A stretch of 64,000 nucleotides of DNA from an uncultured Candidatus Competibacteraceae bacterium. Lineage in GTDB: Bacteria; Bacteroidota; Bacteroidia; CAIKAF01. The notes beneath the pieces were generated by a model. That model was not told where the DNA came from and did no database searches. It saw only the letters and a list, made by a program, of their open reading frames with translations. This document shows positions 1 to 24,485 of the stretch, in pieces (within the stretch, counting starts at the first letter, position 1; every line of letters starts with the position of its first letter). The stretch spans positions 245-64,244 of the forward strand of contig CAZOEO010000019.1 of the NCBI GenBank assembly GCA_964578885.1. The letters run 5' to 3'. A program made the position numbers and the translations under genes.

Positions 1-1738
1 TGCCATGGATCGCTTCAACTATCATTATTCAGCCTCAAATAACAGACTGCTGTATGTAAGCGATAGCGTGGCTACTGCAAACTATGCGAATGATATTGAT
101 GACCAACTTTCTGGAAACTACGGCTATGATGCCATTGGCAACCTAACCCGAGACGACGCAGAAGAAATTAATTTAATCACATGGTCTGTATATGGCAAAG
201 TCAAGAGCGTAGGACGCACGCACGGCTCATCACGCCCCAGAATGAACTTTCATTATGATGCCAGCGGGCAACGCGTGATGAAAGAATTGATATATGGTGT
301 GATTGGAAGCCATGTTGATTCTACTGTAAAGTATTTTTATGTGCGTGATGCCAGCGGAAATGTAATGGCCACTTATCGACATAGCAGTCAAACCCCTGGC
401 CTGTACCTAGAGGAACAAACCATATATGGATCCAGCAGATTGGGAACACGAAACCAATCTCTCAGGGTAAACATAAGCTATTCCTATCCAGCAAACATGT
501 TTAAAGGCATAAGTTATGTGAAAAGAGGCTACAAAACTTATGAACTCAGTAATCATTTGGGGAATGTGCTTGCTACGGTTTCGGATAGGCGTGTTTGTGG
601 CACCTGTACCGATTCCATTGTAGATTTTTATGATGCAGATATCTTAACCATAAGTGATTACTACCCCTTTGGAATGACCATGCAGGGTAGAACTCAGTAT
701 GCAGAAAAATATAGATTCGGGTTTAATGGAATGGAGAAAGACAATGAAGTGTATGGAGATGGAAATTCCTATACGGCAGAGTTTTGGCAGTATGATCCGA
801 GGTCGGGAAGAAGGTGGAATGTGGACCCCTTAGCGGATCATCCAAATCAAATAGGCATGTCTCCTTATGGCGCATTTTGGGGAAATCCATTGGTTTGGTC
901 GGATCCTAGTGGGGCCTGCCCAGAATGCGAGAAGAATGTTAAAAATCCATCAAATAACCAAGAATACATTTCAACAGGCGGAAGCACCTACATTTTTGAA
1001 GAAAGTGGGGGTTGGACTCGTGAGGGCGGTGAACTTCCTGAAGTGAAGATCGAAGATTATGTTGATCTTCAGTACAAAGGCCCAGTTCGTGGAGGCATCG
1101 CCTTCTCAAATGTAGATTTATGGGAGAATTTATATCCGGGATACAATAGGAATACCGGTTATGAGTATAGTCTAACAGATTTACAGATACGTCATACTCA
1201 TCGTCAATCTAGAATCTTAGCCGCAGCATATAGTAGTATTGAGGAGGCCGGAAATGCAGCGCCCACACAACTCGATAAATGGATTGATTTCTTCGGAGTG
1301 GATTACTATAATAAATATAGATTCTTTTCTGCAGTTGAAATGGTATTACCACTAACAGGAATTAGTAACACTGGACGCGCAGGAATAAGGCATGTGTCGT
1401 ATTCATCATATACGGCAAATAGAGGGGTAGTTGCCGCTAAGGGGGGAGCTAACTTTTTGAAATTTGGCGGAGATGAAGCAGTAGTACATTTTGGTAGGCA
1501 CGCAGACCAAATAATGAAGGTCACGGGTAAATCAGCTTACAATCTTAGGAACTATGTTGATGATGCTAATTGGATAATTCAAAATGGAACTTACAGTTCC
1601 AAGCTTAACGGTTATTACCATTACATGGGTAATGCAGCGAAGGGAGAATCTTTGTTTGGTTTTGTTGGGATGAAAAATGGAGGCTCAACTATATCAACTT
1701 TCCATATTAAAACTGCCACACAGCTTGGCTTAAAGTAA
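1..1738 (+). CDS. Rhs/YD-repeat polymorphic toxin, 3' portion (5'-partial; gene continues upstream of the window). It has YD repeats, the canonical Rhs core end (DYYPFGM...YRFGFNGMEKD...YDPRSGRRWNVDPL...SPYGAFWGNPLVWSDPSG), then a ~270-aa C-terminal tip of unrecognised family.
   Basis: YD-repeat motifs (YDAIGNLT, YDASGQRV, RDASGNV) and the DPxG-terminated Rhs core motif seen directly in the ORF translation. The Met at nt 5 is internal, not the true start. Confidence 0.8.
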   Translation, partial: AMDRFNYHYSASNNRLLYVSDSVATANYANDIDDQLSGNYGYDAIGNLTRDDAEEINLITWSVYGKVKSVGRTHGSSRPRMNFHYDASGQRVMKELIYGVIGSHVDSTVKYFYVRDASGNVMATYRHSSQTPGLYLEEQTIYGSSRLGTRNQSLRVNISYSYPANMFKGISYVKRGYKTYELSNHLGNVLATVSDRRVCGTCTDSIVDFYDADILTISDYYPFGMTMQGRTQYAEKYRFGFNGMEKDNEVYGDGNSYTAEFWQYDPRSGRRWNVDPLADHPNQIGMSPYGAFWGNPLVWSDPSGACPECEKNVKNPSNNQEYISTGGSTYIFEESGGWTREGGELPEVKIEDYVDLQYKGPVRGGIAFSNVDLWENLYPGYNRNTGYEYSLTDLQIRHTHRQSRILAAAYSSIEEAGNAAPTQLDKWIDFFGVDYYNKYRFFSAVEMVLPLTGISNTGRAGIRHVSYSSYTANRGVVAAKGGANFLKFGGDEAVVHFGRHADQIMKVTGKSAYNLRNYVDDANWIIQNGTYSSKLNGYYHYMGNAAKGESLFGFVGMKNGGSTISTFHIKTATQLGLK

Positions 1739-1744
1739 AATAAT

Positions 1745-2146
1745 ATGGAGAGATATAAAGTTAGCATAAAGCAGATTGATTGGCTTGATAAGGAGAACCC
1801 AGAAGCAGAAGTTTTATTTGAAATAAATGGAAAGCAGCTTTGGGCTTTTTGTCATCCGTGCAATTTTAAGGAAGGAGAATTAGCTGAAGTTTGTTTTAAT
1901 TTCATTGAAGAAGAAACATCCGAGTCCGCATTTTGGGATGAGAATAAGGAGCAGAAAAGGGATATAATGCCATCAGAGAAAAATAGATGTTACTATTACT
2001 GTTATGGTCAATTAAAAAATATTCACCCTGTAATAATTGATTGCGGTGCTGTTACTCTTTCTTTTGGAGACTGGATTAATGACGAAAGAACGATAGGGAG
2101 TTATGTGTACTTTGTAATATCCCGACTTGATATATCCCGACTTTAA
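1745..2146 (+). CDS. Small protein immediately downstream of the Rhs toxin tip; candidate cognate immunity protein (133 aa, no recognisable domain).
   Basis: 7-nt spacing after the rhs stop, same strand, followed by a terminator. Inferred from the typical toxin-immunity gene order. Confidence 0.45.
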   Translation: MERYKVSIKQIDWLDKENPEAEVLFEINGKQLWAFCHPCNFKEGELAEVCFNFIEEETSESAFWDENKEQKRDIMPSEKNRCYYYCYGQLKNIHPVIIDCGAVTLSFGDWINDERTIGSYVYFVISRLDISRL

Positions 2147-2149
2147 AAT

Positions 2150-2182
2150 TACAAGCCCGGCAAGTCCGGGCTTTTTTATTGA
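2150..2182. terminator. Rho-independent terminator hairpin (aagcccggcaagtccgggctt + T-run), likely bidirectional.
   Basis: GC-rich inverted repeat followed by ttttttatt immediately after the 1745..2146 ORF. Confidence 0.6.
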
Positions 2183-2542: not shown

Positions 2543-3070
2543 TTATTTAATTTTAGTTTCAAGTTTATTTAATTCTAATCTATGGTTTTCAATCTGGGAA
2601 TCCAAATGAATGTACTTTCCCCAAATCCAGTTTTCTAATTGTGTGCGAATGAGACTAATGAAGTCTTGTAGATTGGAAATTGTGCCAAATGTGAGAAAGT
2701 TCAATACCAACCAGATTAAAATTCCTGCTTCTGAATAATTCAAAATATCTCCTAAGTTACTTATCGAGCCAAATTTGTAAAGAGTAAAAAGGATGCCTCC
2801 CCAAAGCAAAACAAACAAGATTCTAACTATAAAATATATTCGCTTGAATGTTTTGGTAAGCTTAATTTTAAGTTGTTCCTCCTTGGCCAAGAGTTCGCTT
2901 AATTGTTGGTGTTTTCGTTTTGCTTCTTCTTTGTCGTCTTTAAATTCATCAGGAGCAAGTTGAGTTCTGCCAACATCTAGTTTGCCTAATGAAATTACAA
3001 ACACAATTATCAGGATGGTAATCAAGATTACAATGAGGGTTTTTTCTGTTAGGCTGCTGTTATTATTCAT
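2543..3070 (-). CDS. Hypothetical membrane protein with a central coiled-coil (175 aa; hydrophobic N-terminal segment, a Lys/Glu-rich helix, two further hydrophobic segments).
   Basis: Hydropathy pattern in the translation; no family recognised. Confidence 0.35.
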   Translation of the reverse strand: MNNNSSLTEKTLIVILITILIIVFVISLGKLDVGRTQLAPDEFKDDKEEAKRKHQQLSELLAKEEQLKIKLTKTFKRIYFIVRILFVLLWGGILFTLYKFGSISNLGDILNYSEAGILIWLVLNFLTFGTISNLQDFISLIRTQLENWIWGKYIHLDSQIENHRLELNKLETKIK

Positions 3071-3827: not shown

Positions 3828-4103
3828 TTGAAGCTACAAACACTACCGCCAGAAAGGGCGGAAGCGGAGCATGAAACTTACGCAACAGAGTTTATTCGGC
3901 GGTTATTACAGCACATCCTGCCCAAAGCATTTGTGCGTATCCAGCTCTACGGATTTTTGAGCAGCACGACTAAGAGCAAGCGCCTGCCTGAATTAAGGCG
4001 AAACTTGCAAATAAACAATCCCGCTCGTGCCGCTGCACAAACTTTACATCGCCACCAAATTCAACTACTGGCTAGCGAAGTGGAAAGCATCCCAAGGGAA
4101 TGA
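3828..4103 (+). pseudogene. IS91-family (Y2 rolling-circle) transposase, C-terminal fragment only.
   Basis: EFIRRLLQHILPKAFVRIQLYGFLSS matches the conserved C-terminal EFIRRFLLHVLPxGFHRIRHYGLF block of IS91/IS801 Y2 transposases (from memory). Only 91 aa are present. Confidence 0.55.
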
Positions 4104-4135
4104 AACAACTGCGGGTTTTATGGAGATTGGGTTGA
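4055..4135 (+). repeat. 81-bp direct repeat, copy 1 (overlaps the 3' end of the IS91 transposase fragment).
   Basis: 77/81 identity with 6404-6484 by eye alignment. Confidence 0.75.
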
Positions 4136-4202
4136 GGGAAGTAAAGTTGGGTACGGTTTTGGAGATTGAAGCTCCATCAGGGGTAAAGATCACGGTGTTT
4201 GC

Positions 4203-4439
4203 ATGAGTTTGTTTGGACTAGAGGAAGCGACCAAGGTTTTTCTTTATGCCCGCCCGGCTGATATGCGAAAGGGATTTGACGGGCTGTATGGCTTGGTACT
4301 TGAGGAAATGAGTTTAGACCCTCGTTTGGGTTATCTTTTTTGTTTTTATGAATTTGCAACGTACTCGCATCAAAGTGTTGCATTGGAATCAGGATGGCTT
4401 GGCCATTTTTCACAAGCGCTTATAACGTGGTACATTTAA
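4203..4439 (+). pseudogene. tnpB: IS66-family accessory protein TnpB (orf2) remnant; C-terminal half diverged or frameshifted.
   Basis: ARPADMRKGFDGLYGLV matches the IS66 TnpB hallmark (xxPxDMRKxFDGL). The length is short and the tail is non-canonical. Confidence 0.55.
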
Positions 4440-4621
4440 GCGTCCAATGGCAAGATTGGACGCGCCCAATAGCGAGCTTAGCAAAGAGGAATTATTCATG
4501 ATTTTGCGGGGAATTGATTTTGAAAGAACCAAGAAAAGAAAGCGCTTTTTATCCACATAAACTGTTGATTACTTTTTCGTAAAAAGGCAGTAAAATCAAC
4601 GTTTTCCCACTATATTTAGGT

Positions 4622-6214
4622 ATGGAAACCGCGATGGAAAACATGACAAAACAAGAGCTGATTCAAGCGCTTTTGTTGCTCAGAAAATCCAACCAAAAGC
4701 TTGAGGTTTCTATCCAGGCAAAAGACGAAGTTATTGCCAAGAAAGACGAAGTTATTGCCAAGAAAGATGAGTGCATTGCCAAGAAAGATGAGTGCATTGC
4801 CGAGAAGGAAGAAGATGTTGCTCGATTAAATTTGATTGTAGCCAATCTTCAGCGCATGCTTTTTGGCACTAAGAAAGAGCGTTTTCTTGCGCAAAACGAA
4901 AATCAGTTAACACTGGAATTTGAAGAGTTCGCCTCAGAAGATGCCAAGGCGGATACCACTCCAGTAAAAGAAAAAATCACCTACGAGCGCGAAAAGCCTT
5001 CAAAGCATGCGGGGCGCAATAAATTGCCTGAAAACCTGCCTGTAGAGGAAGAAATCATTGAGCCTGCGGATTTAAATGAGGGTATGGTAAAAATAGGTGA
5101 AGAAGTAACCGAGATATTGGAGTATGTACCTTCTCGGTTTTTCAAGCGCAGAATTATCCGGCCCAAATATCTCAATAAAGAAACACAGCAAATTGCAATA
5201 GCAGAGCTTCCCTCTAGGCCCATCGAAAAGTGTTTGGCCGGAAATTCTGTTTTAACCCACATTTTGGTGAGCAAATACGTGGATCATTTACCCCTATATC
5301 GCCAACAGCAAATTTTCAAGCGCGCAGATATTGAGATTGCGCCATCCACGATTGATTCTTGGGTGGCGCAGTCCGGCAGTCTTCTTGTTCCGCTTTACGA
5401 TAGAATGGTTGAATATGTTAGAAACCAAGGCTATTTGCAAGCCGATGAAACAACATTGCGGGTATTAGACAAGAATAAAAAGGGCGAAACGCACCTAGGT
5501 TATTTATGGGTGTATCATGCTCCTTTGTCTAAATTATGCGTGTTCGACTACCAAGAAGGCCGTGGAATAGATGCTCCGCGCCAAATGCTTACTAATTATC
5601 ACGGTGCGCTGCAAACCGATGGATACAAAGTGTATGATCACTACTGCCTCCAACCTACAATACACCATTTAGCTTGTTGGGCGCATGCTCGTCGATATTT
5701 TGAAAAGGCACTAATACAAGACAAACAACGTGCATCGCACGTATTGCAGGAAATCCAAAAGCTATACGCTATTGAGCGCAAAACGGCTGACCTTACACCC
5801 GAAGAACGACATGCCATAAGATTAGAAGAAGCTCTTCCTCTCATCAATGAGTTAGGTAAATGGATGCAACGCGAACGAAACATGGTTTTGCCCAAATCCC
5901 TTATCGGAAAAGCCATTGAATATTGCACTAAATTATGGCTGAACTTGTTGGCTTACCTCAATAACGGAAATTACCACATTGATAACAACGCCATAGAAAA
6001 CAAAATCCGCCCCGTAGCGCTGGGACGCAAAAATTATCTGTTTGCCGGATCACATAACGGTGCAAAAAGAACAGCGATGTTCTATACCTTCTTCGCAAAC
6101 TGCCAACTTAACGGCGTAAATCCCGACAAATGGCTCAGTAAAGTACTGGAAGTAATCGCTGATTATCCTTGCAACAAACTACAAAACTTGTTCCCTGGAA
6201 CATTGGAGGTGTAG
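4622..6214 (+). CDS. tnpC: IS66-family transposase TnpC (530 aa), apparently intact.
   Basis: N-terminal leucine-zipper/coiled-coil; LPLYRQ, DETTLRVL, GYLWVY and HLACWAHARRYFEKAL motifs typical of IS66 TnpC. Confidence 0.9.
   Translation: METAMENMTKQELIQALLLLRKSNQKLEVSIQAKDEVIAKKDEVIAKKDECIAKKDECIAEKEEDVARLNLIVANLQRMLFGTKKERFLAQNENQLTLEFEEFASEDAKADTTPVKEKITYEREKPSKHAGRNKLPENLPVEEEIIEPADLNEGMVKIGEEVTEILEYVPSRFFKRRIIRPKYLNKETQQIAIAELPSRPIEKCLAGNSVLTHILVSKYVDHLPLYRQQQIFKRADIEIAPSTIDSWVAQSGSLLVPLYDRMVEYVRNQGYLQADETTLRVLDKNKKGETHLGYLWVYHAPLSKLCVFDYQEGRGIDAPRQMLTNYHGALQTDGYKVYDHYCLQPTIHHLACWAHARRYFEKALIQDKQRASHVLQEIQKLYAIERKTADLTPEERHAIRLEEALPLINELGKWMQRERNMVLPKSLIGKAIEYCTKLWLNLLAYLNNGNYHIDNNAIENKIRPVALGRKNYLFAGSHNGAKRTAMFYTFFANCQLNGVNPDKWLSKVLEVIADYPCNKLQNLFPGTLEV
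4724..4807 (+). repeat. 4 x 21-bp in-frame tandem repeat (2x aaagacgaagttattgccaag, 2x aaagatgagtgcattgccaag) encoding KDEVIAK/KDECIAK heptads in the TnpC N-terminal zipper.
   Basis: Read directly in the sequence. Confidence 0.9.
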
Positions 6215-9967: not shown

Positions 9968-10447
9968 TTATTCAGCAGAGGCCTCAGTGGTATCAGCCGC
10001 AGCAGATTCCACTTTTGCTTTAGCACCACCAGCACGACGGGTACGTTTCTTTGTACCTTCTGACTTTTTGCCGTCTTTGGTATAAGTGGCATTGAAGTCT
10101 ACCAGTTCAATCATGGCCATTTCAGCATTGTCACCAGCGCGAGGTCCCATTTTAATAATACGGGTATAACCGCCAGGACGTGTAGCTACAGCGGCAGCCA
10201 CATCACGGAACAATTCAGTAACTGCTTCCTTGTTTTGCAGGTAGCTGAACACCAAACGACGAGAGTGCGTGGTGTTGTCCTTTGATTTGGTAATCATTGG
10301 CTCCACATACTTACGTAGTTCGCGTGCTTTCGCCACCGTAGTGGTGATACGCTTGTGGGTAATCAAAGAAATCGCCAGGTTGGCTAAAAGGGCCTGCCGA
10401 TGTGCGGCTTTACGACCCAAATGATTCACTTTTCTTCCGTGTCTCAT
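9968..10447 (-). CDS. rplQ: 50S ribosomal protein L17, with a Lys/Ala/Glu-rich C-terminal extension.
   Basis: [25 protein letters not shown]... signature. Confidence 0.95.
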
Positions 10448-10479
10448 GACTTAGTTTTTATGAAACCACCAATGGTGCT

Positions 10480-11472
10480 TCAGTCTTTATCTAATTTATA
10501 TTTGGCCACATTCATTCCGAAGTGAAGGCCTTTATTGCGAACCAATTCTTCTAGTTCCACCAAAGACTTCTTACCGAAGTTACGAAATTTCAATAAGTCG
10601 TTTTTGTTGAAAGCCACCAGGTCTCCGATGGTTTCCACATCAGCCGCTTTAAGGCAGTTGAGGGCACGAACGGATAGATCTAAATCAACCAGTTTGGTTT
10701 TTAACAACTGACGCATGTGAAGGCTCTCCTCGTCAAACTCTTCAGTTTGGGCTTTTTCTTCCGTATCGAGCGTAATTTTCTCATCAGAGAAAAGTGCAAA
10801 GTGCTGGATTAGAATTTTAGCCGCTTCCTTCAGCGCTTCTTTAGGATGAATGGAACCATCAGATTTTACTTCAACCAACAACTTTTCATAGTCAGTTTTT
10901 TGTTCTACCCGATAGTTTTCAATTGCGTACTTCACGTTAACAATGGGAGTGAAGATAGAGTCAATGGCTATAAAATGAATGTCGCCATGATCCCTTTTAT
11001 TTTCCTCCGCCGGACGATAACCTCTGCCTTTCTCGATTACAATCTCCATGTGAAGTTTCACAGAAGGATCGAGATTACAAATCACCATATCAGGATTCAG
11101 GATTTGAAAACCTGAGGTGAATTTAGAGATATCACCTGCACGAAACTGTTCTGCACCGGTAAACGAAATGACCACATGCTCAGAATCCAGGGTATCAATT
11201 TGTCTTTTAAACCTAACTTTTTTCAGGTTTAAAATGATGTCAGACATGTCTTCCACAACACCTTGCAGGGTAGAGAATTCATGAGAAACACCATCTATCT
11301 TCACCGCTGTAATGGCGAATCCTTCTAAAGAGGAAAGTAGAATTCTTCTAAGAGAATTGCCAATGGTAATCCCGTAACCCGGTTCGAGGGGGCGGAACTC
11401 AAATTTGCCCAGGAACTCATCTGATTCGAGGAGTATAACCTTGTCGGGCCGTTGAAAATCGAGAATGGCCAT
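10480..11472 (-). CDS. rpoA: DNA-directed RNA polymerase subunit alpha.
   Basis: 330 aa, canonical rpoA N- and C-terminal domains, sited between rpsD and rplQ. Confidence 0.95.
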
Positions 11473-11494
11473 ATGCGGTGTAATCGGTTAGAAA

Positions 11495-12100
11495 TTATTT
11501 GGAGTAAAGTTCCACGATAAGTTGTTCGCGGATATTTTCAGGAATTTGCTCGCGACGTGGTGCCATAATAAAGGTACCTTCCATGGCGGCTTGATCCCAG
11601 CTCAACCAATCAAAACGGTGAGGAGACAATCCCAATGAATTAGTAATAACAGAAAGGGACTTTGAACGCTCACGTACACCCACTTTATCACCTGGTTTCA
11701 AGGAAAAAGAAGGAATACCAACCAATTCACCATTAACGGTAATATGTTTGTGGGTAACGAGCTGACGAGCGGCGTCTCTGGTGGGAGCCACACCCATACG
11801 ATATACTACGTTATCCAAACGGCTTTCACAAAGGATTAAAAGGTTTTCACCAGTAACCCCTTTCAGGGTGGAAGCTTTCTCAAACAATTTTCTGAATTGA
11901 CGCTCCAGAATACCATAAGTATACTTAGCTTTTTGCTTCTCCATCAACTGGATAGCATATTCAGACTGCTTCTTTCTGCGCTTAGAAGGGCCATGCATTC
12001 CGGGAGGATATGCTTTGCGCTGCAGCGACTTGGAAGGACCGAAAATGGGTTCCCGAAAACGACGGGCTATCTTGGCTTTAGGGCCTCTATAACGTGCCAT
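11495..12100 (-). CDS. rpsD: 30S ribosomal protein S4.
   Basis: [15 protein letters not shown]... Confidence 0.95.
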
Positions 12101-12142
12101 GACAATTTACTTAATTAGATGAATAAATGTGAAGGTAAAGGA

Positions 12143-12526
12143 TTAAACGCGACGACGTTTCGGCGGACGGCAGCCATTGTGAGGCATAGGCGTAATGTCT
12201 ACGATTTCGGTCACCTCAATCCCAGCATTATAGATATACCGAATAGCGGACTCCCTTCCTGCTCCAGGGCCTTTCACATACACTTTAACACGACGTAATC
12301 CCAAATCATACGCTTCTTTAGCACACTCAGTGGAGGCCATTTGAGCGGCGTATGGGGTGTTTTTCTTGGATCCTTTAAAACCCATTTTACCCGCACTGGA
12401 CCAAGTGATGACTTGCCCTTGCGCATTGGTAAGAGAAATGATGATGTTGTTGAAAGTAGCATTGATATGCGCTTCTCCAACCGCATCCACTTTCACATTT
12501 TTCTTGCTGACTTTTTGCTTTGCCAT
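12143..12526 (-). CDS. rpsK: 30S ribosomal protein S11. Start set at MAKQK; the track ORF begins 2 codons earlier at a TTG.
   Basis: ...[20 protein letters not shown]...[12 protein letters not shown]. Confidence 0.93.
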
Positions 12527-12535
12527 GATCAAAGA

Positions 12536-12913
12536 TTACTTGGTAGCTTTCTTCTTGTTTGCTACGGTTTTTTTCTTGCCTTTCCGTGTGCGGCAATTGT
12601 TTTTGGTTTTCTGTCCACGTACAGGCAATCCCACACGATGACGAATACCACGGTAACAACCAATATCCATCAGACGCTTGATGTTGAGCTGCACCTCAGA
12701 ACGAAGCGCACCTTCTACCTTAACTTCTGCATTAATGATATTACGAATCCGAGCCAATTGGTCATCGGTCCATTCGCTTACTTTTGTATTGAAATCAATT
12801 TCAGCTTTCGTTAAAATGCGCTGTGCCATTGGACGGCCAATGCCGAAAATGTAAGTGAGTCCTACCTCACCTCGCTTGTTCCTTGGAAGATCTATACCTG
12901 CGATCCTTGCCAT
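12536..12913 (-). CDS. rpsM: 30S ribosomal protein S13.
   Basis: [14 protein letters not shown]... Confidence 0.95.
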
Positions 12914-12945
12914 ACTGTGATGTTTCTGGGATTGTTGTATTAAAA

Positions 12946-13062
12946 TTAACCCTGACGTTGTTTAAAACGGGGATTCTTTTTGTTGATGACGTAGAGCTTT
13001 CCATTCCGACGCACAATTTTGCACTCGGCGCTACGCTTTTTAATCGATGCTTTTACTTTCAT
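12946..13062 (-). CDS. rpmJ: 50S ribosomal protein L36 (38 aa; below the ORF-track size cutoff).
   Basis: Hand translation of the minus strand: [38 protein letters not shown]. Confidence 0.9.
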
Positions 13063-13067
13063 GGCGC

Positions 13068-13286
13068 TTATTTGTAACGGTATACAATCCGACCCTTTGT
13101 AAGGTCGTAAGGTGACATTTCTACACGAACTTTATCCCCTGGTAAAATCTTAATGTAATGCATTCGCATTTTACCGGAAATATGGGAGACAATAATATGA
13201 CCATTCTCTAATTCCACACGAAACATGGCATTAGATAAAGCCTCTATAATTGTTCCATCTTGTTCTATTGAAGGCTGTTTAGCCAT
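13068..13286 (-). CDS. infA: Translation initiation factor IF-1.
   Basis: 72 aa S1-like OB fold, ...[35 protein letters not shown]. Confidence 0.95.
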
Positions 13287-13289
13287 TCT

Positions 13290-14096
13290 TTATATATAAG
13301 TTAAGTTCGTATTCTTTTGTATCGCTTCTTCAATGGCAGCATAAGATGAAAGTAATTCAAACTTTCCGTCTCTCACTACCACATTGTGTTCAAAATGGGC
13401 GCTGGGTTGTTTGTCTCTGGTCACAATGGTCCATTGATCACTTAACACGCGCACGTGACGTTTCCCGAGATTAATCATCGGTTCAACCGCCAACACCATT
13501 CCTGATTTCAACAAAACACCACGGCCCCTTGAACCAAAATTTGGTACCTCAGGAGCTTCATGCAAATTGGCGCCTAAACCATGACCGACCAATTCGCGCA
13601 CTACACTCATTCCATTGGATTCTGCATGTTTCTGAACAGCGAAACCAATATCACCGGTATAATTACCAGCCTGAGCCTGAGCTACACCCAAGTAAACACA
13701 TTCCTTTGTCACAGACAAAAGCTTAGCCCATTGGGGAGAAATTTCACCTATAGCAAAAGTATATGCGAAATCTCCGTGGTAACCTTTGCGTTGAATGCCA
13801 ATATCCACGGTAACAATGTCACCGGATTTCAGAGGCGTTTTTCCTGGAAAACCATGCACTACCTGTTCGTTTACACTATAACAAATAGAGAAAGGAAAAC
13901 CATGAAAACCTTTGAAGGAAGCTTTGGCCTGATGATCTTGAATGAAAGTGTCTACCCACGCATCCACCTCCAAACCGGTCACACCGGGCTTAAGCCTACT
14001 GGCTACAAGCGCAAGGGCTTGTTCAACAAGTAAAGAACTCTGCCTACAAAGAGCAACCTCTTCTTCGGACTTTATAATAGGCACTCCACTGGCCAT
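13290..14096 (-). CDS. map: Methionine aminopeptidase, type I.
   Basis: 268 aa, pita-bread metal ligand pattern, in the conserved position after secY. Confidence 0.9.
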   Translation of the reverse strand: MASGVPIIKSEEEVALCRQSSLLVEQALALVASRLKPGVTGLEVDAWVDTFIQDHQAKASFKGFHGFPFSICYSVNEQVVHGFPGKTPLKSGDIVTVDIGIQRKGYHGDFAYTFAIGEISPQWAKLLSVTKECVYLGVAQAQAGNYTGDIGFAVQKHAESNGMSVVRELVGHGLGANLHEAPEVPNFGSRGRGVLLKSGMVLAVEPMINLGKRHVRVLSDQWTIVTRDKQPSAHFEHNVVVRDGKFELLSSYAAIEEAIQKNTNLTYI

Positions 14097-14101
14097 AGAC
14101 C

Positions 14102-15430
14102 TTACATGGAGGGATAATTAGCCGGCATTCTTCCCTGCAGTTTTCCGGATTTCATCAATCCATCAAACTGACGCATTTTGAGGTGAGAATCGATTTGAGC
14201 CAAAGTGTCTAACACTACACCTACCATGATCAACAGAGAAGTACCTCCGTAAAACTGAGCAAAAGCAGGGTTCACATTGGCGAGAATGGCAAAGGCAGGT
14301 AAAATAGCTACAACTGCAAGGAAAATAGATCCAGGAAGAGTAACACGAGAAATAACCGCATCGATGTATTCAGCGGTCTTTTTTCCGGGCTTTACACCAG
14401 GAATGAAAGAACCTTCACGTTTCAACAAATCTGCCATTTGCTGAGGATTCACAACAATAGCGGTGTAGAAATAAGTGAAGACAATAATCAGCATGGCAAA
14501 AGTGAAGTTGTAGGCAAAAGAAGTGTAATCACTAAAGTTGCGCACAAACCAATTGGGTTCATCAGAAACGAAACCCGCCAACGTAATAGGAATAATCATA
14601 ATTGCCTGAGCGAAAATGATAGGCATTACACCGGATGAATTCACTTTTAATGGAAGGTAGCTTCTGGCACCCGTTGTAAAACGGTTTCCAACCATGCGTC
14701 TGGCAGCGTGAATAGGTATTTTACGCACACCCTGAACAAGCATAATGCTTAGGATGATTACCAGTAAAAGAATCACCATTTCCAAAAGGAACATAATCAT
14801 ACCTCCACCACCTGGTTCAACTTTACTTCTGAACTCTGTCAAGAGACCTGAAGGCAAAGAAGCAATAATACCAATCATGATAATCAAAGAAGTACCATTC
14901 CCAATACCTCGATCGGTAATTTTCTCACCTAACCACATCACGAAAAGTGTACCAGCAATGATGATGGTTACCGCGAGAATCCACCAGGAAGTGGTATCGG
15001 GGTAAACACCGGCTGGTATGTACTGGGTAAGGTAACCAGGCGCCTGAAAAGCAGTAATCAAAACGGTGAGACCACGGGTGATCTGCGTGAGTTGATTCCT
15101 GCCACTTTCATCTTTCTGAAGTTTTTGAAAATAGGGAACTGCAACGCCCAAAAGCTGAATGATAATAGATGCCGATATATAAGGCATAATACCAAGAGCG
15201 AAAATGGAGGCGTTAGAAAACGCACCACCAGTAAGCAGGTTAATGAGGTCAATCAAATTGGCGTCATCACGCGCTTCCAACTTGGAGGCTAAAAGCTCCG
15301 TATCGATACCTGGCAGGGTAATATAGGAACCCAGGCGATACACTGCCACCAAAATCATGGTGAAAGTGATACGATCACGGAGTTCCTGTATACTCCAGAT
15401 TTCTTTAAGACGTTGAACTAAGTTCTTCAT
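14102..15430 (-). CDS. secY: Preprotein translocase subunit SecY.
   Basis: 442 aa, 10-TM profile, in the conserved position. Confidence 0.95.
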   Translation of the reverse strand: MKNLVQRLKEIWSIQELRDRITFTMILVAVYRLGSYITLPGIDTELLASKLEARDDANLIDLINLLTGGAFSNASIFALGIMPYISASIIIQLLGVAVPYFQKLQKDESGRNQLTQITRGLTVLITAFQAPGYLTQYIPAGVYPDTTSWWILAVTIIIAGTLFVMWLGEKITDRGIGNGTSLIIMIGIIASLPSGLLTEFRSKVEPGGGGMIMFLLEMVILLLVIILSIMLVQGVRKIPIHAARRMVGNRFTTGARSYLPLKVNSSGVMPIIFAQAIMIIPITLAGFVSDEPNWFVRNFSDYTSFAYNFTFAMLIIVFTYFYTAIVVNPQQMADLLKREGSFIPGVKPGKKTAEYIDAVISRVTLPGSIFLAVVAILPAFAILANVNPAFAQFYGGTSLLIMVGVVLDTLAQIDSHLKMRQFDGLMKSGKLQGRMPANYPSM

Positions 15431-15444
15431 GGAAAAAGGTGAGA

Positions 15445-15891
15445 TCAGAGCGTTTGAGCAACACCACCTGCTTGCTCAATAGCAACACGTGCAGATGATG
15501 AAAAAGCATGAACGGTTACGTTGAGTTTGGCTTTTAATTCACCACTACCCAAAACCTTGACCAAATCGTTTTTAGAAACCAAACCGTGTGTGCGGAGGGT
15601 CTCCAAGCTGATTTCAGACAAGCCATGATTTTCAGACAAACGTTGAAGAACGTCTAAATTGAGTGGCTTATAAGAAACACGGTTGAAGTTGGTGAAACCG
15701 AATTTAGGTAAACGACGCTGAATTGGCATCTGACCACCTTCGAAACCAATCTTCTTGGAATAACCTGAACGAGACTTGGCACCTTTATGGCCACGTCCGG
15801 ATGTACCACCTTTGGTAGAACCTTCTCCACGTCCAACGCGACGTCCGGTATGTGTTGCTCCTGTTGCAGGAGATAACTGATTCAATTTCAT
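15445..15891 (-). CDS. rplO: 50S ribosomal protein L15. Start set at MKLNQL; the track ORF extends 11 codons further.
   Basis: MKLNQLSPATGATHTGRRVGRGEGS... Confidence 0.9.
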   Translation of the reverse strand: MKLNQLSPATGATHTGRRVGRGEGSTKGGTSGRGHKGAKSRSGYSKKIGFEGGQMPIQRRLPKFGFTNFNRVSYKPLNLDVLQRLSENHGLSEISLETLRTHGLVSKNDLVKVLGSGELKAKLNVTVHAFSSSARVAIEQAGGVAQTL

Positions 15892-15901
15892 AATGCAAAA
15901 A

Positions 15902-16081
15902 TCAAATGTGTTCAACGGTAACAAGGTGAGAAACTTTGCTAACCATACCCATGATTTGAGGGGTAGCTTCGTGTTCTACAACTTGGTTCATTTTCCGAAT
16001 ACCGAGGGCAATAAGTGTAGCCTTTTGACGCTCGGGGCGGTCGATACCGCTCTTTACTTGTTTAATACGAATTTTGGCCAT
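15902..16081 (-). CDS. rpmD: 50S ribosomal protein L30 (59 aa; not in the ORF track).
   Basis: Hand translation: MAKIRIKQVKSGIDRPERQKATLIALGIRKMNQVVEHEATPQIMGMVSKVSHLVTVEHI. Confidence 0.9.
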   Translation of the reverse strand: MAKIRIKQVKSGIDRPERQKATLIALGIRKMNQVVEHEATPQIMGMVSKVSHLVTVEHI

Positions 16082-16091
16082 GATACCCAGA

Positions 16092-16610
16092 TTATCCGTT
16101 AAATACTTTTTCCAATTTCACGCCACGCTCTTGAGCTACTGTGTATGCATCACGAAGTTCAGCAAGCGCTTCAAAGGTAGCTTTCACTACATTGTGCGGG
16201 TTGGAAGAACCTTTAGATTTGCATAACACATCTTTTACACCAACCGATTCAAGCACAGCACGCATAGCACCACCAGCGATAACACCGGTACCGGAAGCAG
16301 CTGGCTTCATGAATACACGTGATGAACAGTATTTAGCAGTAATTTCGTGAGGAATAGATCCATTGCGGATAGGAACACGAATTAGGTTCTTTTTGGCATC
16401 GTCGATACCTTTCTGAATAGCTTCAGTAACCTCATTGGCTTTTCCCAATCCATAACCGACTACCCCATTCTCATTTCCAACTACCACAATGGCGGCAAAG
16501 GAGAAGTGGCGACCACCCTTGGTCACTTTAGTTACGCGGTTGATTGCCACCAACCGGTCTTTCAATTCAATTTCGCTGGATTTAACCCGCTTTACGTTTG
16601 TCTGTGCCAT
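16092..16610 (-). CDS. rpsE: 30S ribosomal protein S5.
   Basis: ...[36 protein letters not shown]... Confidence 0.95.
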
Positions 16611-16617
16611 AGTGATA

Positions 16618-16971
16618 TCAGAAATTCAATCCACCTTCACGGGCGCCATCAGCCAAAGCCTTAACCCGTCCATGATACAAATATCCACCGCGATCGAAGG
16701 TTACCGCTTGGATGCCTAATTGTTGAGCCCGGTTAGCGAGCATTTTGCCTACCTCAAAAGAGCGGGCAGTTTTAGTACCTTCACCTGAAAAAGATTTTTC
16801 AGCGGAAGATGCATGTGCTAAGGTTTTACCAGACAAATCGTCGATAAGCTGAGCATAAATATCGCTATTGCTGCGGAAAACAGACAAACGGGGACGGGCT
16901 GCAGTGCCCTTCACACCTTTGCGAATACGAAAACGGATACGTTGCCTTCTGGCGGATTTATTGAATGCCAT
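16618..16971 (-). CDS. rplR: 50S ribosomal protein L18.
   Basis: 117 aa, conserved position and motifs. Confidence 0.93.
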
Positions 16972-16990
16972 TTCTGTCGGGATTCTTCAA

Positions 16991-17545
16991 TTATTTACCT
17001 GCTGATTTACCAGCTTTTCTTCTTAATACTTCGTTCTTGAATCGGATACCTTTTCCTTTGTATGGTTCAGGCTTACGTAAAGAACGGATTTTAGCGGCCA
17101 CCTGACCCAGCAACTGAAGGTCGCTAGAGTTCATGACAATACGTGGGTTCTTACCTTTTTCAGTAATAGTTTCCACAAGGATTTCCTTTGGTAACTCAAT
17201 CACGTAGTTGTGAGAATAACCAAGGGTAAGATCCAGGATTTGCCCTTTGGCTTCAGCACGATAACCTACACCAACCAGCTCTTGCTCTACAGTGAAGCCG
17301 GTGGATACACCTTTCACCATGTTATTAACCAGAGAACGGTATAGACCATGCATTGAACGGTGACGTTTCTGATCTGTAGCACGTGAAACGGTGAGCACTG
17401 ATCCTTCCACTTGGAAAGAAATAGCGGGGTCAACCGTTTGGTGTAGTTCTCCCTTGGGGCCTTTTACAGTAACCACATTGGCAGGAGAGACTGAGAACTG
17501 CACGTTGGCAGGAAGTTGAATAATAGCTTTTCCTATGCGTGACAT
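16991..17545 (-). CDS. rplF: 50S ribosomal protein L6.
   Basis: MSRIGKAIIQLPANV... Confidence 0.95.
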   Translation of the reverse strand: MSRIGKAIIQLPANVQFSVSPANVVTVKGPKGELHQTVDPAISFQVEGSVLTVSRATDQKRHRSMHGLYRSLVNNMVKGVSTGFTVEQELVGVGYRAEAKGQILDLTLGYSHNYVIELPKEILVETITEKGKNPRIVMNSSDLQLLGQVAAKIRSLRKPEPYKGKGIRFKNEVLRRKAGKSAGK

Positions 17546-17556
17546 ACTTTCTCAGA

Positions 17557-17949
17557 TTAATAGATGGAACAAAGTACTTCGCCACCCACGTTAAGGGAGC
17601 GAGCTTGTTTATCGGTCATCACACCACGTGAAGTGGAGATAATGGCAATACCCAAACCATTTAACACACGGGGCATTTCAGTAGCACCCTTGTAGCTGCG
17701 TAAACCAGGGCGTGAGATACGCTTTAAGTTTTTGATGGCAGGCTGACGGGTAGCCGGATGATATTTAAGGGCAATTTTAATTGTACCTTGAACGGTATTG
17801 TCCTCAAATTTATAGTTAAGAATATAACCTTGATCCATGAGGATTTTAGTCATTTCTTTTTTGATATTCGATGCGGGAATCTCTACCACACGGTGACGGG
17901 CCTTAATGGCATTCCGCAAACGTGTCAGATAATCTGCTATTGGATCCAT
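17557..17949 (-). CDS. rpsH: 30S ribosomal protein S8.
   Basis: [14 protein letters not shown]... Confidence 0.95.
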
Positions 17950-17970
17950 GTCTAATAATGCTTAACTAAT

Positions 17971-18240
17971 TTACCAGGAGGCTTTGGTTACACCAGGAAT
18001 CTTGCCTTCATTGGCCATTTTACGGAATAATACACGAGAGATTCCAAACTGTCTCATGTATCCTCTAGGTCTACCTGTTAGTTGGCAACGATTGTGCAGG
18101 CGCACAGGCGATGAATTTTTGGGTAAACGGGCTAAGGCTTGATAATCACCTTCCTCTTTCAAAGCGGCACGCTTAGCTGCATATTTGGCGACAAGACGCT
18201 GACGTTTGCGTTCTTTGGCCTTCATTGATTCTTTTGCCAT
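17971..18240 (-). CDS. rpsN: 30S ribosomal protein S14 (long, 89-aa form).
   Basis: ...[39 protein letters not shown]. Confidence 0.95.
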
Positions 18241-18245
18241 GACCC

Positions 18246-18809
18246 TTATTCCTGGTTTTTATTCACATCATTGAACGGCATACCGAAACCTCTCAGTAGT
18301 GCGTAAGCTTCGGCGTTGGTTGGAGCAGATGTCACAAAAGTGATGTCCATACCATTGATTTTCAAAACTTTATCGATGTCGATTTCAGCGAAAATCAATT
18401 GTTCGGGGATACCGATATTATAGTTACCTCTGCCGTCGAATCCTTTGGCGTTTACACCTTTAAAATCACGGATCCGGGGAAGTGATATAGAGATAAAACG
18501 ATCCAAAAACTCATACATGTTGTTCCCGCGAAGGGTTACCATGGCCCCAATGGGCATACCTTTTCTGAGTTTAAAATTCGAAATGTCCTTTTTAGACTTG
18601 GTTGAAACTGCTTTCTGACCAGAGATCAGAGACATTTCAGCCACCGCCATTTCAATGATGCGTTTGTCTGAAACGGCAGAACCGAGTCCTTGATTAAGGA
18701 CAATCTTTTTCAGGCGTGGAACCTGCATGGGAGATTTATACCCAAACTCCTTCTGAAGGGCGGGTACAATTTCATCCCTGTACTTTTGTATAAGTCTTGG
18801 TGCGTACAT
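18246..18809 (-). CDS. rplE: 50S ribosomal protein L5.
   Basis: 187 aa, conserved position and motifs. Confidence 0.95.
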
Positions 18810-19135
18810 TACTTAATAACTTCTCCTGTTTTCTTTGCAAAGCGAACCAGTTTACCATCCACTGATTTGCGACCAACACGTGTAGGTTGGTCTTTCACCA
18901 ACAACATGATGTTGGAAATATGGATAGGTGCCTCTTTCTCCACGATTTTTCCTTCTGGAGAGGCAGGGGTTGGTTTGGTATGGCGTTTCACCATATTAAC
19001 ACCTTCCACCGTTACGCGCATGGTTTCGCGGTTAATTGCTTTCACAAGACCTTTTGAGCCTTTATGAACGCCGGCAATCACCATTACCTGATCACCACTT
19101 TTAATCTTAAGTTTAATGCCCATGATATGGTTCAA
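18809..19135 (-). CDS. rplX: 50S ribosomal protein L24.
   Basis: [20 protein letters not shown] (KOW motif). Confidence 0.93.
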
Positions 19136-19504
19136 TTAAAGCACTTCGGGTGCCAGTGATACGATTTTGGTAAATTGCTTTTCACGCAGTTCACGTGCCA
19201 CCGGACCAAAAATCCTGGTTCCACGCATTTCGCCCTGGTTATTCAACAGAACAACTGCGTTATCGTCAAAGCGGATGTAAGAACCATCCAAACGACGAAT
19301 TTCTTTACGGGTTCTTACCACAACAGCTTTTGTAACAGCACCCTTTTTCACGTTTCCTGAAGGGAGGGCATCTTTTACTGAAACTACAATGGTGTCTCCG
19401 ATGGAAGCATACCTTTTCTTGGTACCGCCCAAAACGCGGATACACAATACCTCTTTGGCACCTGAATTATCCGCTACACGTAATCTTGATTCCTGCTGTA
19501 CCAT
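19136..19504 (-). CDS. rplN: 50S ribosomal protein L14.
   Basis: [27 protein letters not shown]. Confidence 0.95.
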
Positions 19505-19506
19505 GG

Positions 19507-19770
19507 TTACTTAGCTCTTTCAATAATTTCAACTAAACGCCAGTTCTTGCTTTTGCTCAGAGGACGAGTTTCCATAATGCGCACGGTATCACCGATATTA
19601 CATTCGTTTTTCTCATCATGTGCATGGAACTTAGAGGTAAGGGTGAGAAACTTCCCGTATTTTGGGTGTTTCACCTTACGCTCAACGGCTACCGTAATGG
19701 TCTTGGTCATCTTATTGGATACCACCACTCCGGTTTTTTCTTTCCTGCTTTTTCTAACGGTCAATTCCAT
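19507..19770 (-). CDS. rpsQ: 30S ribosomal protein S17.
   Basis: ...[29 protein letters not shown]... Confidence 0.93.
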
Positions 19771-19786
19771 GACGCAAATCTATATT

Positions 19787-19858
19787 CAATGAAGGATACC
19801 CCTGAAAACGGGCTTGCAAAGGTGCACGTAATTTTTGAAATATCCAACATCAAGTTGT
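19787..19858 (-). promoter_or_regulatory. Conserved ~72-bp promoter-like element, copy A, upstream of rpsQ. On the minus strand it reads AT-rich tract, inverted repeat TTAACAAcTTGatGTTGG, TTTG -33-like box, conserved spacer GCAAGCCCGTTTTcAGGGG, TA-rich -7-like box.
   Basis: Three-way alignment with 24824-24882 and 28048-28129. Confidence 0.6.
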
Positions 19859-19896
19859 TAATTTTTTTATGATTATTTGAATTATCACCTGCTATA

Positions 19897-19935
19897 AAAA
19901 AAAAGCCATGTGGTGAAACACATGGCCAGTATTCA
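19897..19935 (-). terminator. Rho-independent terminator after rpmC (gccatgtgtttcaccacatggc + T9 on the minus strand), inside the classical S10-spc junction.
   Basis: Perfect 8-bp stem plus a 9-U run, 10 nt after the rpmC stop. Confidence 0.65.
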
Positions 19936-19946
19936 TGTCAGGTGGA

Positions 19947-20135
19947 TTATCCTTTGCGACGGTTTTGTTCCGTAAGCAGTTGGGCAATCACTTTCCTTGA
20001 AGCTTTGAGCACACCCGGATTCTCAAGAGTTGAGATAGCATGGGTCATGCGAAGCTTTTGCAGATTAGCACGCTCAGCGGTCAACTTATCAGTTAATTCA
20101 GCGTCTGTGATATCTTTAATTTCAGCGTATTTCAT
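19947..20135 (-). CDS. rpmC: 50S ribosomal protein L29.
   Basis: 62 aa, ...LRMTHAIS... Confidence 0.9.
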   Translation of the reverse strand: MKYAEIKDITDAELTDKLTAERANLQKLRMTHAISTLENPGVLKASRKVIAQLLTEQNRRKG

Positions 20136-20148
20136 GATCTGCGAAGAT

Positions 20149-20568
20149 TTAAGCTTGATAATCCCTGCGGATTAAAAACTTGGTTTTTACGGGAAGCTTT
20201 TGAGCTGCAAGGCGAAGCGCCTCTTGTGCCACCTCAGTAGGTACGCCGTCAATTTCAAAAAGGATACGACCAGGCTTTACGATAGCTGCCCAGTATTCGG
20301 GGTTACCTTTACCTTTACCCATCCGTACTTCGGCAGGCTTTTTCGTAATAGGTTTATCTGGGAAAATGCGAATCCAAACTTGACCTTCCCGTTTCATGTA
20401 ACGGTTCATGGCTACACGAGCGGCTTCTATTTGACGACCGGTCATCCAGGCATACTCAAGGCTTTTCAGGGCGAAAGATCCGAAAGAGATCTCTGCACCA
20501 CGCTGAGCCACACCTTTCATCCGGCCTTTCTGGACCTTCCGGTATTTTGTTCTTTTAGGCTGAAGCAT
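20149..20568 (-). CDS. rplP: 50S ribosomal protein L16.
   Basis: [19 protein letters not shown]. Confidence 0.95.
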
Positions 20569-20589
20569 GATTGTACTCCTTAATGGTTA

Positions 20590-21312
20590 TCAATTCCGTT
20601 TACGTTTTGGCCTGGGAGCGGTAACTCCTCCTGGCGCTTTGGATGCTGCTGATTTACTGGCGGGGATATTGGGGCTTAAATCCCGTTTACCATACACCTC
20701 ACCCAACATAATCCATACTTTAATTCCGATACGACCATAAGTAGTATGCGCTTCGGCTAAAGCATAATCAATATCCGCTCTGAACGTGTGCAGTGGAATA
20801 CGACCTTCCTTGAAATTCTCGGAACGTGCAATCTCTGCACCAGCCAAACGACCAGAAATAGATACTTTAATACCTTCTGCACCCATACGGATGGTAGAAG
20901 CAATGGCCATTTTAATGGCACGACGGTAAGAAACACGACCTTCGATTTGGCGGGCAATCGAATCGGCAACAAGACGTGCATCCATTTCAGGACGTTTAAT
21001 CTCGGCGATGTTGATACCCACCTCTTTCTTGGTGAGTTTCTTTAATTCTTCACGAAGTTTTTCAACCTCCTGCCCCATTTTACCAATGATAATACCAGGA
21101 CGTGCGGTGTGAATAGTGATGGTTACCAGTTTGTGGGTACGTTCAATAATTACACGTGAAATGCTGGCCTTAGCCAAACGAGCTTTGATGTAGTTACGAA
21201 TGGTTTCGTCTTCAACAAGCTTTTCAGTGTACTTTTTACCACCGTACCAGTTGGATTCCCAACCACGGATGTAACCTAAACGGTTGCCAATTGGATTTGT
21301 CTTTTGTCCCAT
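20590..21312 (-). CDS. rpsC: 30S ribosomal protein S3. Start set at MGQKTNPIG; the track ORF extends 17 codons upstream.
   Basis: [24 protein letters not shown] plus KH domain. Confidence 0.93.
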
Positions 21313-21316
21313 GATA

Positions 21317-21733
21317 TTATGCGTTGGCGGGGGTTTCAGTTTCAGTACGACGTCCCAACTCAAGGGTTACATGGTTCGAACGTTTGCGAACACGGTGTGC
21401 ACGACCCTGAGGGGCTGGCTGCACGCGCTTCAACATTCTTCCACCGTCCACAAAAATGGTTTTGATGAAGAGATTTTGTTCGTCTGCACGCTGTCCACTT
21501 TTCACTTCAAAGTTCGCCAAAGCGCTCTTAAGAAGTTTCTCTAAAGGACGGGCAGCCGCCTTAGGAGTAAAGTGAAGGATATCCAAAGCTTTATTGGCAT
21601 CCATACCACGTACTAGATCTGCCACTAAACGCATTTTGCGCGGTGAAGTGGGGAAATTATTGAGTCTGGCAAAATACCGGGACTTATTGGCTTCTTTTCT
21701 GGCGTCTGCGGCCAATTTTTTACGCTTACCCAT
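21317..21733 (-). CDS. rplV: 50S ribosomal protein L22 (true start uncertain; the ORF has an N-terminal extension).
   Basis: ...[32 protein letters not shown]... Confidence 0.9.
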
Positions 21734-21751
21734 GATACGTTCCGGTTATAA

Positions 21752-22033
21752 TTAACGTTTACCTTTATCTTTTTTCTGTCCGGCATGTCCTCTCCAGGTA
21801 CGGGTAGGAGCAAATTCGCCTAACTTATGACCTACCATGTTTTCTGTTACATATACAGGAATATGTTTATTCCCATTATGAACAGCGATGGTATGCCCAA
21901 CGAAATCGGGCGTAATCATGGAACGACGAGACCAGGTTTTAATCACCGTCTTTTTACCAGACTGATTTTGGTCCAAAACTCGTTTCTCGAGTTTAAAGTC
22001 TACAAATGGACCTTTTTTTAATGAACGAGCCAT
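21752..22033 (-). CDS. rpsS: 30S ribosomal protein S19.
   Basis: [12 protein letters not shown]... Confidence 0.95.
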
Positions 22034-22038
22034 ATAAA

Positions 22039-22866
22039 TTATTTCTTGCGGCGTGCTACAATATACTTAGAGGAGGCCTTGCGTGGGCTGCGGGTTTTAT
22101 AACCTTTGGCCGGAATTCCATTCCGTGAACGTGGGTGTCCACCGGAAGCTCTTCCTTCACCACCACCCATTGGGTGATCCACAGGGTTCATAGCCACACC
22201 GCGTGTACGAGGTCTGCGCCCCAACCAGCGGTTACGACCAGCTTTACCGTGTACGGTAAGGTTATGATCTGCATTACTAACAGCACCAATAACGGCGCGA
22301 CATGTAACCAGCACCATCCGTTGCTCACCGGAAGGAAGACGCAAAACTGCGTATTTTCCTTCACGCGCCGCTAATTGAGCCGAAGCACCAGCTGAGCGAC
22401 AAATAGCAGCACCGCGACCAGGCTGAAGTTCAATATTGTGCACATTGCTACCAAGCGGAATTTCGGAAAGAGGTAAACAATTTCCAAGATCAGGTGATGC
22501 ACCCGGACCTGAAACAACGGTTTGCCCTACTTGCAATCCTGTTGGCGCAATAATGTACGCTTTTTCACCATCTGCGTAAGCCAACAAGGCAATACGAGCT
22601 GTACGATTTGGATCGTATTCAATGGTCTTCACAGTGGCTGGAACACCATCTTTGGTCCGCTTGAAATCTACAATACGGAGGCGCTTTTTATGACCACCAC
22701 CTAAATGGCGCATAGTCATTTTTCCGCTACCATTACGACCTCCAGAACGTTTTTTTACAACGGTCAGGGATTTTTCTGGAGCATTAGGCGCAGTAACCTC
22801 TTTAAAATCAGAAATTACTTTAAAACGAGTACCGGGAGTTACCGGGCGAAACTTTCTTAAACCCAT
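22039..22866 (-). CDS. rplB: 50S ribosomal protein L2.
   Basis: 275 aa, ...[15 protein letters not shown]... Confidence 0.95.
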
Positions 22867-22870
22867 GATA

Positions 22871-23164: not shown

Positions 23165-23165
23165 G

Positions 23166-23792: not shown

Positions 23793-23805
23793 CATGATAT
23801 CCTCC

Positions 23806-24423: not shown

Positions 24424-24485
24424 AGCATTTGAATTATCCGCAGCGGAGTCCTGACCAGCCAGTCTGAACTCTTACGGGGGTTAAA

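Follow-up and report, generated by a model that had tools for sequence, protein, structure and literature searches.

The locus described here lies at the left edge of a 64,000-nt stretch of DNA (the window), and it raises three questions: whether the variable tip of its Rhs protein is a toxin, which part of that tip would carry the activity, and whether the small gene behind it encodes the matching immunity protein. All nucleotide coordinates are positions in the window, and the features are on the + strand (Table 1). The Rhs open reading frame (ORF) is open from nt 2 and runs off the left window edge, so that 578 codons are visible before the stop at 1736-1738; the N-terminal delivery part of the protein lies beyond this edge and, if the longest contig found to carry the window's proteins (64,757 bp) is the source contig, is probably absent from the assembly as well. 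Three YD-type repeats are found in the visible frame (YGYDAIGN at aa 40, FHYDASGQ at aa 83 and YVRDASGN at aa 113), and the Pfam RHS_repeat HMM gave no score on this short fragment. The model TIGR03696 matched aa 220-304 over model positions 1-75 of 76 with an E-value of 1.8e-6 and 28.3 bits, a score below the NCBI curated cut-off of 32.5 bits. The core terminates in PLVWSDPSG, with DPSG at aa 301-304, and fits the pattern PxxxxDPxG. Both the YD repeats and the canonical Rhs core end on which the original prediction was built are present. By analogy, this core end is presumably the autoproteolytic boundary ahead of the tip; self-cleavage after the core motif occurs in other Rhs proteins. The locus is chromosomal: a cluster of ribosomal-protein, SecY and RpoA genes and EF-G are found 8-25 kb away from it, and insertion sequence (IS) fragments and an IS66 transposase are found ~1.7-4 kb downstream (at 3.8-6.2 kb).

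Table 1. Features of the Rhs toxin locus, in window coordinates (nt)
Feature	Position	Strand	Basis or detail
Rhs/YD-repeat polymorphic toxin gene, C-terminal 578 aa	2..1738	+	open frame, YD motifs, TIGR03696 core
Rhs-associated core, DYYPFGM to PLVWSDPSG, aa 220-304	659..913	+	TIGR03696 and motif reading
Lineage-specific linker / pre-toxin region, aa 305-477, 173 aa	914..1432	+	homologue coverage, DNA boundary 1432/1433
Conserved toxin domain, aa 478-578, ~100 aa, predicted BECR-fold RNase	1433..1738 (coding to 1735)	+	
H496 codon (candidate active site)	1487-1489	+	
H500 codon (candidate active site)	1499-1501	+	
Cognate immunity gene, 133 aa, acidic (pI 4.7), predicted tandem OB/Mop-like beta-barrels	1745..2146	+	
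Intrinsic terminator hairpin, AAGCCCGG-CAAGT-CCGGGCTT and T-run	2153..2173	+	8 pairs, 6 G-C
Mobile toxin-domain, immunity and terminator cassette, ~740 bp	1433..2175	+	sharp DNA homology boundaries

The tip after DPSG comprises aa 305-578 (274 aa, nt 914-1735), and the original prediction treated all of these ~270 residues as the toxin. A search with the 275-aa tip as the query returned 20 proteins, of which only one (P0001, 99% identical to the tip and encoded on a 1.9-kb metagenome contig) covered the query in full. In the other 19, similarity is limited to the last ~105 residues, FLKFGGDEAVVHFGRHADQIMK...STISTFHIKTATQLGLK, which are joined to unrelated upstream sequence; some of these upstream parts are Rhs core ends, and other homologues are short stand-alone ORFs of 153-157 aa. 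Because the similarity in 19 of 20 homologues is confined to this C-terminal portion, the toxin domain was assigned to aa 478-578. The preceding aa 305-477 have no Pfam match and no homologue except the 99%-identical P0001. The tip thus contains a conserved toxin domain in its last ~100 aa, as far as the earlier claim goes, but it is not one unit, the first ~173 aa being a linker.

Searches of Pfam, NCBIfam and PDB sequences gave no match to the tip. When the window toxin domain was scanned together with 32 diverse relatives, no toxin family of any kind reached E 1 in Pfam, and NCBIfam was negative as well. PDB sequence searches with the single protein, an 18-sequence profile and a 33-sequence profile gave no match to the toxin domain, and no HMM-level link was seen from this domain to any named BECR family, such as Colicin_D or Ntox35. 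A weak DUF5442 match (E 0.055-0.07) was taken as chance because it was absent from later domain-only scans. The domain was then approached through its predicted structure, an AlphaFold2 model built with 18 family sequences (mean pLDDT 80.3, pTM 0.72), which showed two helices (H16-32 and H39-52) followed by a four-stranded antiparallel sheet (strands 54-56, 61-68, 74-82 and 87-95). This arrangement contains the N-terminal helical segment and the four-stranded antiparallel meander found in the BECR fold. The closest structural neighbour of the model is the CdiA-CT of E. coli O32:H37 (8ey4, score 7.3, with 72 residues aligned at 18% identity), on which, as 8EY4 or as O32:H37 CdiA, nothing was found in the literature. 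It is followed by the colicin D tRNase (5znm / 1tfk, 5.9 / 5.3), CdiA-CT 7m5f (5.9), the CdiA-CTs 6d7y and 6cp9 (Kp342; 5.1), BrnT (5.0), YxiD-CT (4.8) and CdiA-CT NC101 (5i4q, 4.7), a set that corresponds to what Zhang et al. 2012 (PMC3482391) defined as the BECR fold. A Foldseek search against the PDB gave no significant match (best E 0.17, to NTF2-like proteins, with RelE and CdiA-CT among the weak matches), so the model-based assignment of the toxin domain to the fold of the BECR RNase toxins (colicin D, CdiA-CT-like) is likely rather than certain. Given this predicted fold, the domain is most likely a nuclease that belongs to an unnamed clade. The original prediction had matched the tip to no known toxin family; this holds for the curated sequence families, but the predicted fold is that of a BECR RNase.

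The conservation pattern points to a candidate active site within this fold. Across the 35 loci compared, which represent six phyla, H496, H500, Y513, Y518, D521, N523, G529, T566, H568 and K570 never vary, and N536 is conserved in 33 of the 35. In the AlphaFold2 model, H496 and H500 lie one helical turn apart in helix 1, while T566, H568 and K570 occupy every other position of the last strand and would therefore face one side of the sheet. In BECR RNases, the catalytic residues are a His or basic residues of the N-terminal helix and an alcoholic residue (S/T) in strand 4 (PMC3482391), a pattern that H496/H500 in helix 1 and T566 in the last strand fit. In Ntox35, one helix histidine is required for killing (bioRxiv 10.1101/2025.07.24.666436). 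Based on sequence conservation, H496, H500, T566, H568 and K570 are regarded as the candidate active site, and the position of invariant residues in the BECR catalytic elements, together with the requirement for the Ntox35 histidine, led to the proposal that the toxin domain may be a metal-independent endoribonuclease.

The gene behind the toxin was investigated in the same way. The 133-aa ORF begins 6 nt after the toxin stop and in the same frame as the Rhs ORF; the original prediction was right about its strand and about the terminator that closes it, but had given the spacer as 7 nt. No Pfam (in a copy without PF27718), NCBIfam or PDB sequence match was found for this ORF. A homology search returned 59 homologues of the 133-aa protein, several of them sharing contigs with toxin matches, and adjacent toxin and immunity genes are represented by the NCBI locus tags AAF519_17415 and AAF519_17420. 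Eight of the 59 carry a precomputed PF27718 (PF27718.1) tag, and a literature search found nothing on PF27718. The linkage was then counted across genomes: an ORF of at least 60 aa starts close after the toxin stop at 42 of 44 genome loci, and at 39 of these 42 it is homologous to the 133-aa protein (38 by direct profile search, 39 by iteration) and starts -4 to +16 nt from the toxin stop. The claim of a toxin-immunity pair is supported by these loci, the Rhs-type toxin having a cognate downstream family. The homologous ORFs are 116-139 aa long, one being shortened by a contig end; the three exceptions among the 42 are ORFs that follow truncated toxin fragments. The linkage holds regardless of the carrier protein.

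The two partners also appear to have diverged together. Pairwise divergence of the toxins is correlated with that of the immunity proteins (r = 0.70; Mantel 0/2000 permutations), with the immunity proteins diverging faster (mean identity 32% vs 55% for the toxins). With pI values of 9.7 and 4.7, respectively, the toxin domain is basic and the immunity protein acidic, a charge pattern seen in 32 of 35 pairs. On reading the sequence, no hydrophobic signal sequence was found at the N-terminus of the 133-aa protein, which fits a cytoplasmic target. Residues conserved across the wide immunity family include, among others, W13, E20, A21, F35, R127 and D129. A zinc site formed by C36, C39, C86 and C100 was considered and rejected: these cysteines are conserved only in a close Bacteroidota subgroup, not across the wider family, and are thus not a general feature of the immunity protein.

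A comparison at the DNA level showed where the exchanged segment begins and ends. Three other contexts match the window from nt 1432/1433 to 2158-2191, with unrelated DNA on either side. In the first of these contexts, two metagenome contigs (L006/L007) with 98% DNA identity, the toxin is a 123-aa stand-alone ORF that adjoins an integrase, a primase and a SymE-like gene. In a Saprospiraceae MAG (L008), also with 98% DNA identity, the toxin sits on a different Rhs-like ORF, and in an Algoriphagus MAG (L002/L003/L009), with 93.6% DNA identity, it is a 157-aa ORF. The 5' junction falls at the 'AAK' that opens the toxin domain and is the same in the four contexts. The Rhs core has a G+C content of ~42-45%, which drops along the locus and is ~35% in the immunity gene. 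Near-identical copies of the locus are found in several metagenomes. The terminator hairpin, which lies within the conserved cassette DNA and closes the cassette, is common to a convergent gene. Judged from these sequence boundaries, toxin and immunity gene move between bacteria as one ~740-bp cassette.

The toxin domain is distributed far beyond the window. An HMM search that was exhaustive over 1.84 billion cluster representatives returned 396 representatives at E ≤ 1e-3 and 240 at E ≤ 1e-10, and the domain is C-terminal in almost every match listed. The genome scan placed the 44 loci in Bacteroidota, Firmicutes, Proteobacteria, Cyanobacteria, Planctomycetota and Chloroflexota, and members occur in Listeria, Enterococcus, Clostridium botulinum, Pseudomonas syringae, Photorhabdus and Xenorhabdus, among others. 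No relatives were found in viral contigs, and a plasmid search gave a single match, on a Deinococcus megaplasmid. The original prediction had proposed a search for the same tip fused to other delivery domains, and the domain was found on Rhs, CdiA-like, PT-TG, VgrG-Rhs and SpvB-Rhs carriers. A Pfam scan of large members revealed RHS repeats with SpvB and FG-GAP; RHS with DUF6531 and a weak VgrG-like match; DUF6443 with RHS (the Bacteroidota type); DUF637 of the filamentous-haemagglutinin / CdiA-like kind, in four cases; PT-TG; and a transglutaminase-like protein, and a precomputed entry added PT-HINT. The domain also occurs as stand-alone ORFs of 123-157 aa, and in CP158860 it lies in a 265-aa orphan ORF within an Rhs cassette array, adjoining Tox-REase-7 and AHH nuclease cassettes. 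In the database records examined, members are labelled only 'hypothetical protein', 'RHS repeat...' or 'filamentous hemagglutinin'.

Taken as a whole, the locus is probably best explained as an Rhs toxin with a BECR-type RNase domain and its own immunity gene, carried on a mobile cassette. The Rhs protein would cleave itself after PxxxxDPSG and thereby free a 274-aa fragment that consists of the 173-aa linker and the ~100-aa toxin domain. The latter would act as a metal-independent endoribonuclease, and by analogy with the nearest structural neighbours its target would most likely be tRNA. H496 and H500 share one face of helix 1 and may serve as the general acid and base; T566, H568 and K570, which share a face of the last strand, would complete the active site, and the cleaved RNA would end in a 2',3'-cyclic phosphate. 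The acidic, cytoplasmic 133-aa protein would protect the producer cell by binding the basic toxin and blocking it. The toxin domain, immunity gene and terminator make up a cassette that recombines onto different delivery proteins and moves between lineages.

The step from fold to chemistry admits another reading, in which toxin and immunity protein form a pair but the toxin is not an RNase, being instead a ParE-like inhibitor (e.g., of gyrase), a DNase, or an enzyme whose chemistry is new to this small alpha/beta scaffold. ParE, although no nuclease, has a BECR-like fold too, and this counts against the RNase reading; among the structural neighbours of the toxin model, ParE ranks lower, as do RelE and HigB. 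A toxin that is not an RNase is considered unlikely.

The extent of the toxin is at issue in a further proposal, that the whole 274-aa tip is a two-domain effector in which toxicity would also need the unique 173 aa, for a second activity or for entry. The cleavage motif, the 173-aa region and the toxin domain do follow one another in a single translated frame, and other carriers have 100-200 aa of variable sequence at the same place. However, this region has no homologue beyond the one 99%-identical protein and no family match, many carriers and the stand-alone ORFs of 123-157 aa have the toxin domain but lack this region, and the DNA boundary at 1432/1433 leaves it out of the cassette. A membrane-entry helix before the toxin domain was also considered and rejected, since hydrophobic, membrane-like segments (KD ≥ 1.6) are not enriched there (8% vs 16% in a control further upstream). 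A two-domain effector is judged improbable. It is more improbable still that the locus is a decayed remnant, i.e., a truncated or orphan rhs end or an inactive cassette without present function. Such decay could be suspected from the gene running off the window, the IS fragments and IS66 transposase downstream, the short stand-alone copies, and a related metagenome contig whose rhs frame is broken at the point that matches window nt 490. However, the 578 codons are open, the core motif, the immunity ORF and the terminator are intact, all invariant toxin residues are present, and near-identical copies recur in several metagenomes, leaving very little room for a locus without function.

The preferred explanation, an Rhs toxin with a BECR-type RNase domain and cognate immunity, does not call for a new type of system. 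The protein shows every testable feature of the Rhs class, namely YD repeats, the core and a variable C-terminal toxin with an immunity gene, and the toxin domain has no named BECR HMM match; the system is therefore an unnamed clade of a known weapon class. A bolder version would be a new BECR clade, marked by HFxKH in helix 1 and TFHxK in the last strand, that has its own RNA target, with an immunity protein of new fold, a tandem OB/Mop-like barrel and perhaps a nucleic-acid mimic, and the 740-bp cassette as its mobile unit; this version is put forward tentatively, its chances being judged slightly short of even. The toxin-immunity family would deserve a name, as it comprises ~400 clusters at 50% identity in at least six phyla, pathogens included. 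Its invariant residues are clear mutagenesis targets, and the locus is an unusually clean example of cassette exchange. If characterised, the family could provide a new inhibitor fold and widen the BECR toolbox by a new RNA-targeting specificity, while the general understanding of how polymorphic toxins act would stay unchanged.

Among the known systems, the BECR tRNases that are delivered by Rhs and CdiA proteins and held in check by a dedicated immunity protein offer the closest functional parallel, and the window system is proposed to work alike by analogy. The nearest described pattern is that of Ntox35, which has a predicted BECR fold with two N-terminal-helix histidines ('H, KH') and a conserved S/T in the last strand, and which is found on RHS carriers in Bacteroidetes, Firmicutes, Chloroflexi and Planctomycetes (PMC3482391). 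The two helix-1 histidines and the strand-4 S/T are common to Ntox35 and the window family, and both Ntox35 and the window toxin domain have BrnT as a structural neighbour. However, the histidines are spaced by 4 residues here (H496/H500) and by 6 in the S. aureus S8-Ntox35 (H199/H205; bioRxiv 10.1101/2025.07.24.666436), the last strand of the window family carries an additional invariant His-x-Lys, and a Pfam scan of 33 diverse members gave no match to any Ntox family up to E 1. With the Rhs toxin and orphan cassette arrays, the locus has in common the YD repeats, the DPxG core end, the variable C-terminal toxin, the downstream immunity gene and orphan toxin-immunity cassettes able to recombine. 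Nothing essential differs from these arrays; the window cassette is also found on an integrase/primase element, where its toxin is a stand-alone ORF.

The minus-strand cluster of ribosomal-protein, SecY, methionine aminopeptidase and RpoA genes, together with EF-G, lies in the same window (table below), which places the rhs locus on the chromosome, near a core operon block. Immediately 3′ of the toxin-immunity cassette, two ORFs of 78 and 175 codons are convergent to it, and several near-identical metagenome contigs likewise carry this gene pair 3′ of the cassette. The product of the 175-aa ORF is predicted to contain membrane segments, and its Pfam matches are weak and exclusively sub-threshold. 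Separately, mobile-element remains were observed directly downstream of the rhs locus (window 3828-6214).

Features of the window flanking the rhs locus on its 3′ side
Feature	Window coordinates	Strand
78-aa ORF, convergent to the cassette	2176-2412	-
175-aa ORF, convergent to the cassette	2543-3070	-
Y2_Tnp transposase fragment	3828-4103	
IS66 Orf2 fragment	4203-4439	
IS66-family transposase, complete	4622-6214	
Ribosomal-protein, SecY, methionine aminopeptidase, RpoA cluster and EF-G	9968-28012	-

The rhs homology of a related metagenome contig, L054, begins only from window nt 490 (comparison of L054:1-196 with the window), and the first 55 nt of this contig match window 4081-4135, the IS-associated region. 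The 420-aa ORF on this contig, P0001, starts at a new ATG. This junction could have arisen in a sister strain through truncation of rhs by an IS, or it could be an assembly chimera.

An alignment of the toxin family (A3) showed that most members outside the Bacteroidota subgroup of the window have an additional conserved tail at the C-terminus, ...KKAPSLG and a further 2-4 residues, which typically extends 7-11 aa beyond the toxin domain (e.g., L004:10001-10462). The toxin of the window ends in QLGLK, without the KKAPSLG tail. The immunity protein (window 1745-2146) possesses a Cys/His cluster composed of C36, H37, C39, C86 and C100, within the motifs AFCHPC, YYCYG and DCG. Among the immunity proteins, the close Bacteroidota subgroup conserves this cluster and the distant 122-aa relatives lack it; it may be a metal site specific to the lineage, or it may have a structural role.

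A copy of the cassette, 98% identical, was found on another contig (L006:1-7138), where the toxin is a 123-aa stand-alone ORF. Its neighbours there encode a phage-type integrase, a primase/Toprim protein, a SymE-like toxin and an HTH regulator, a setting that looks like an integrative mobile element, on which toxin and immunity protein might together function as an addiction module. In CP158860.1 (L001:1-20798), a DUF6443-bearing Rhs gene lies upstream of many orphan toxin-immunity cassettes in a long array. The toxin family of the window is represented in this array, as are AHH and Tox-REase-7, the latter paired with a HEAT-repeat gene.
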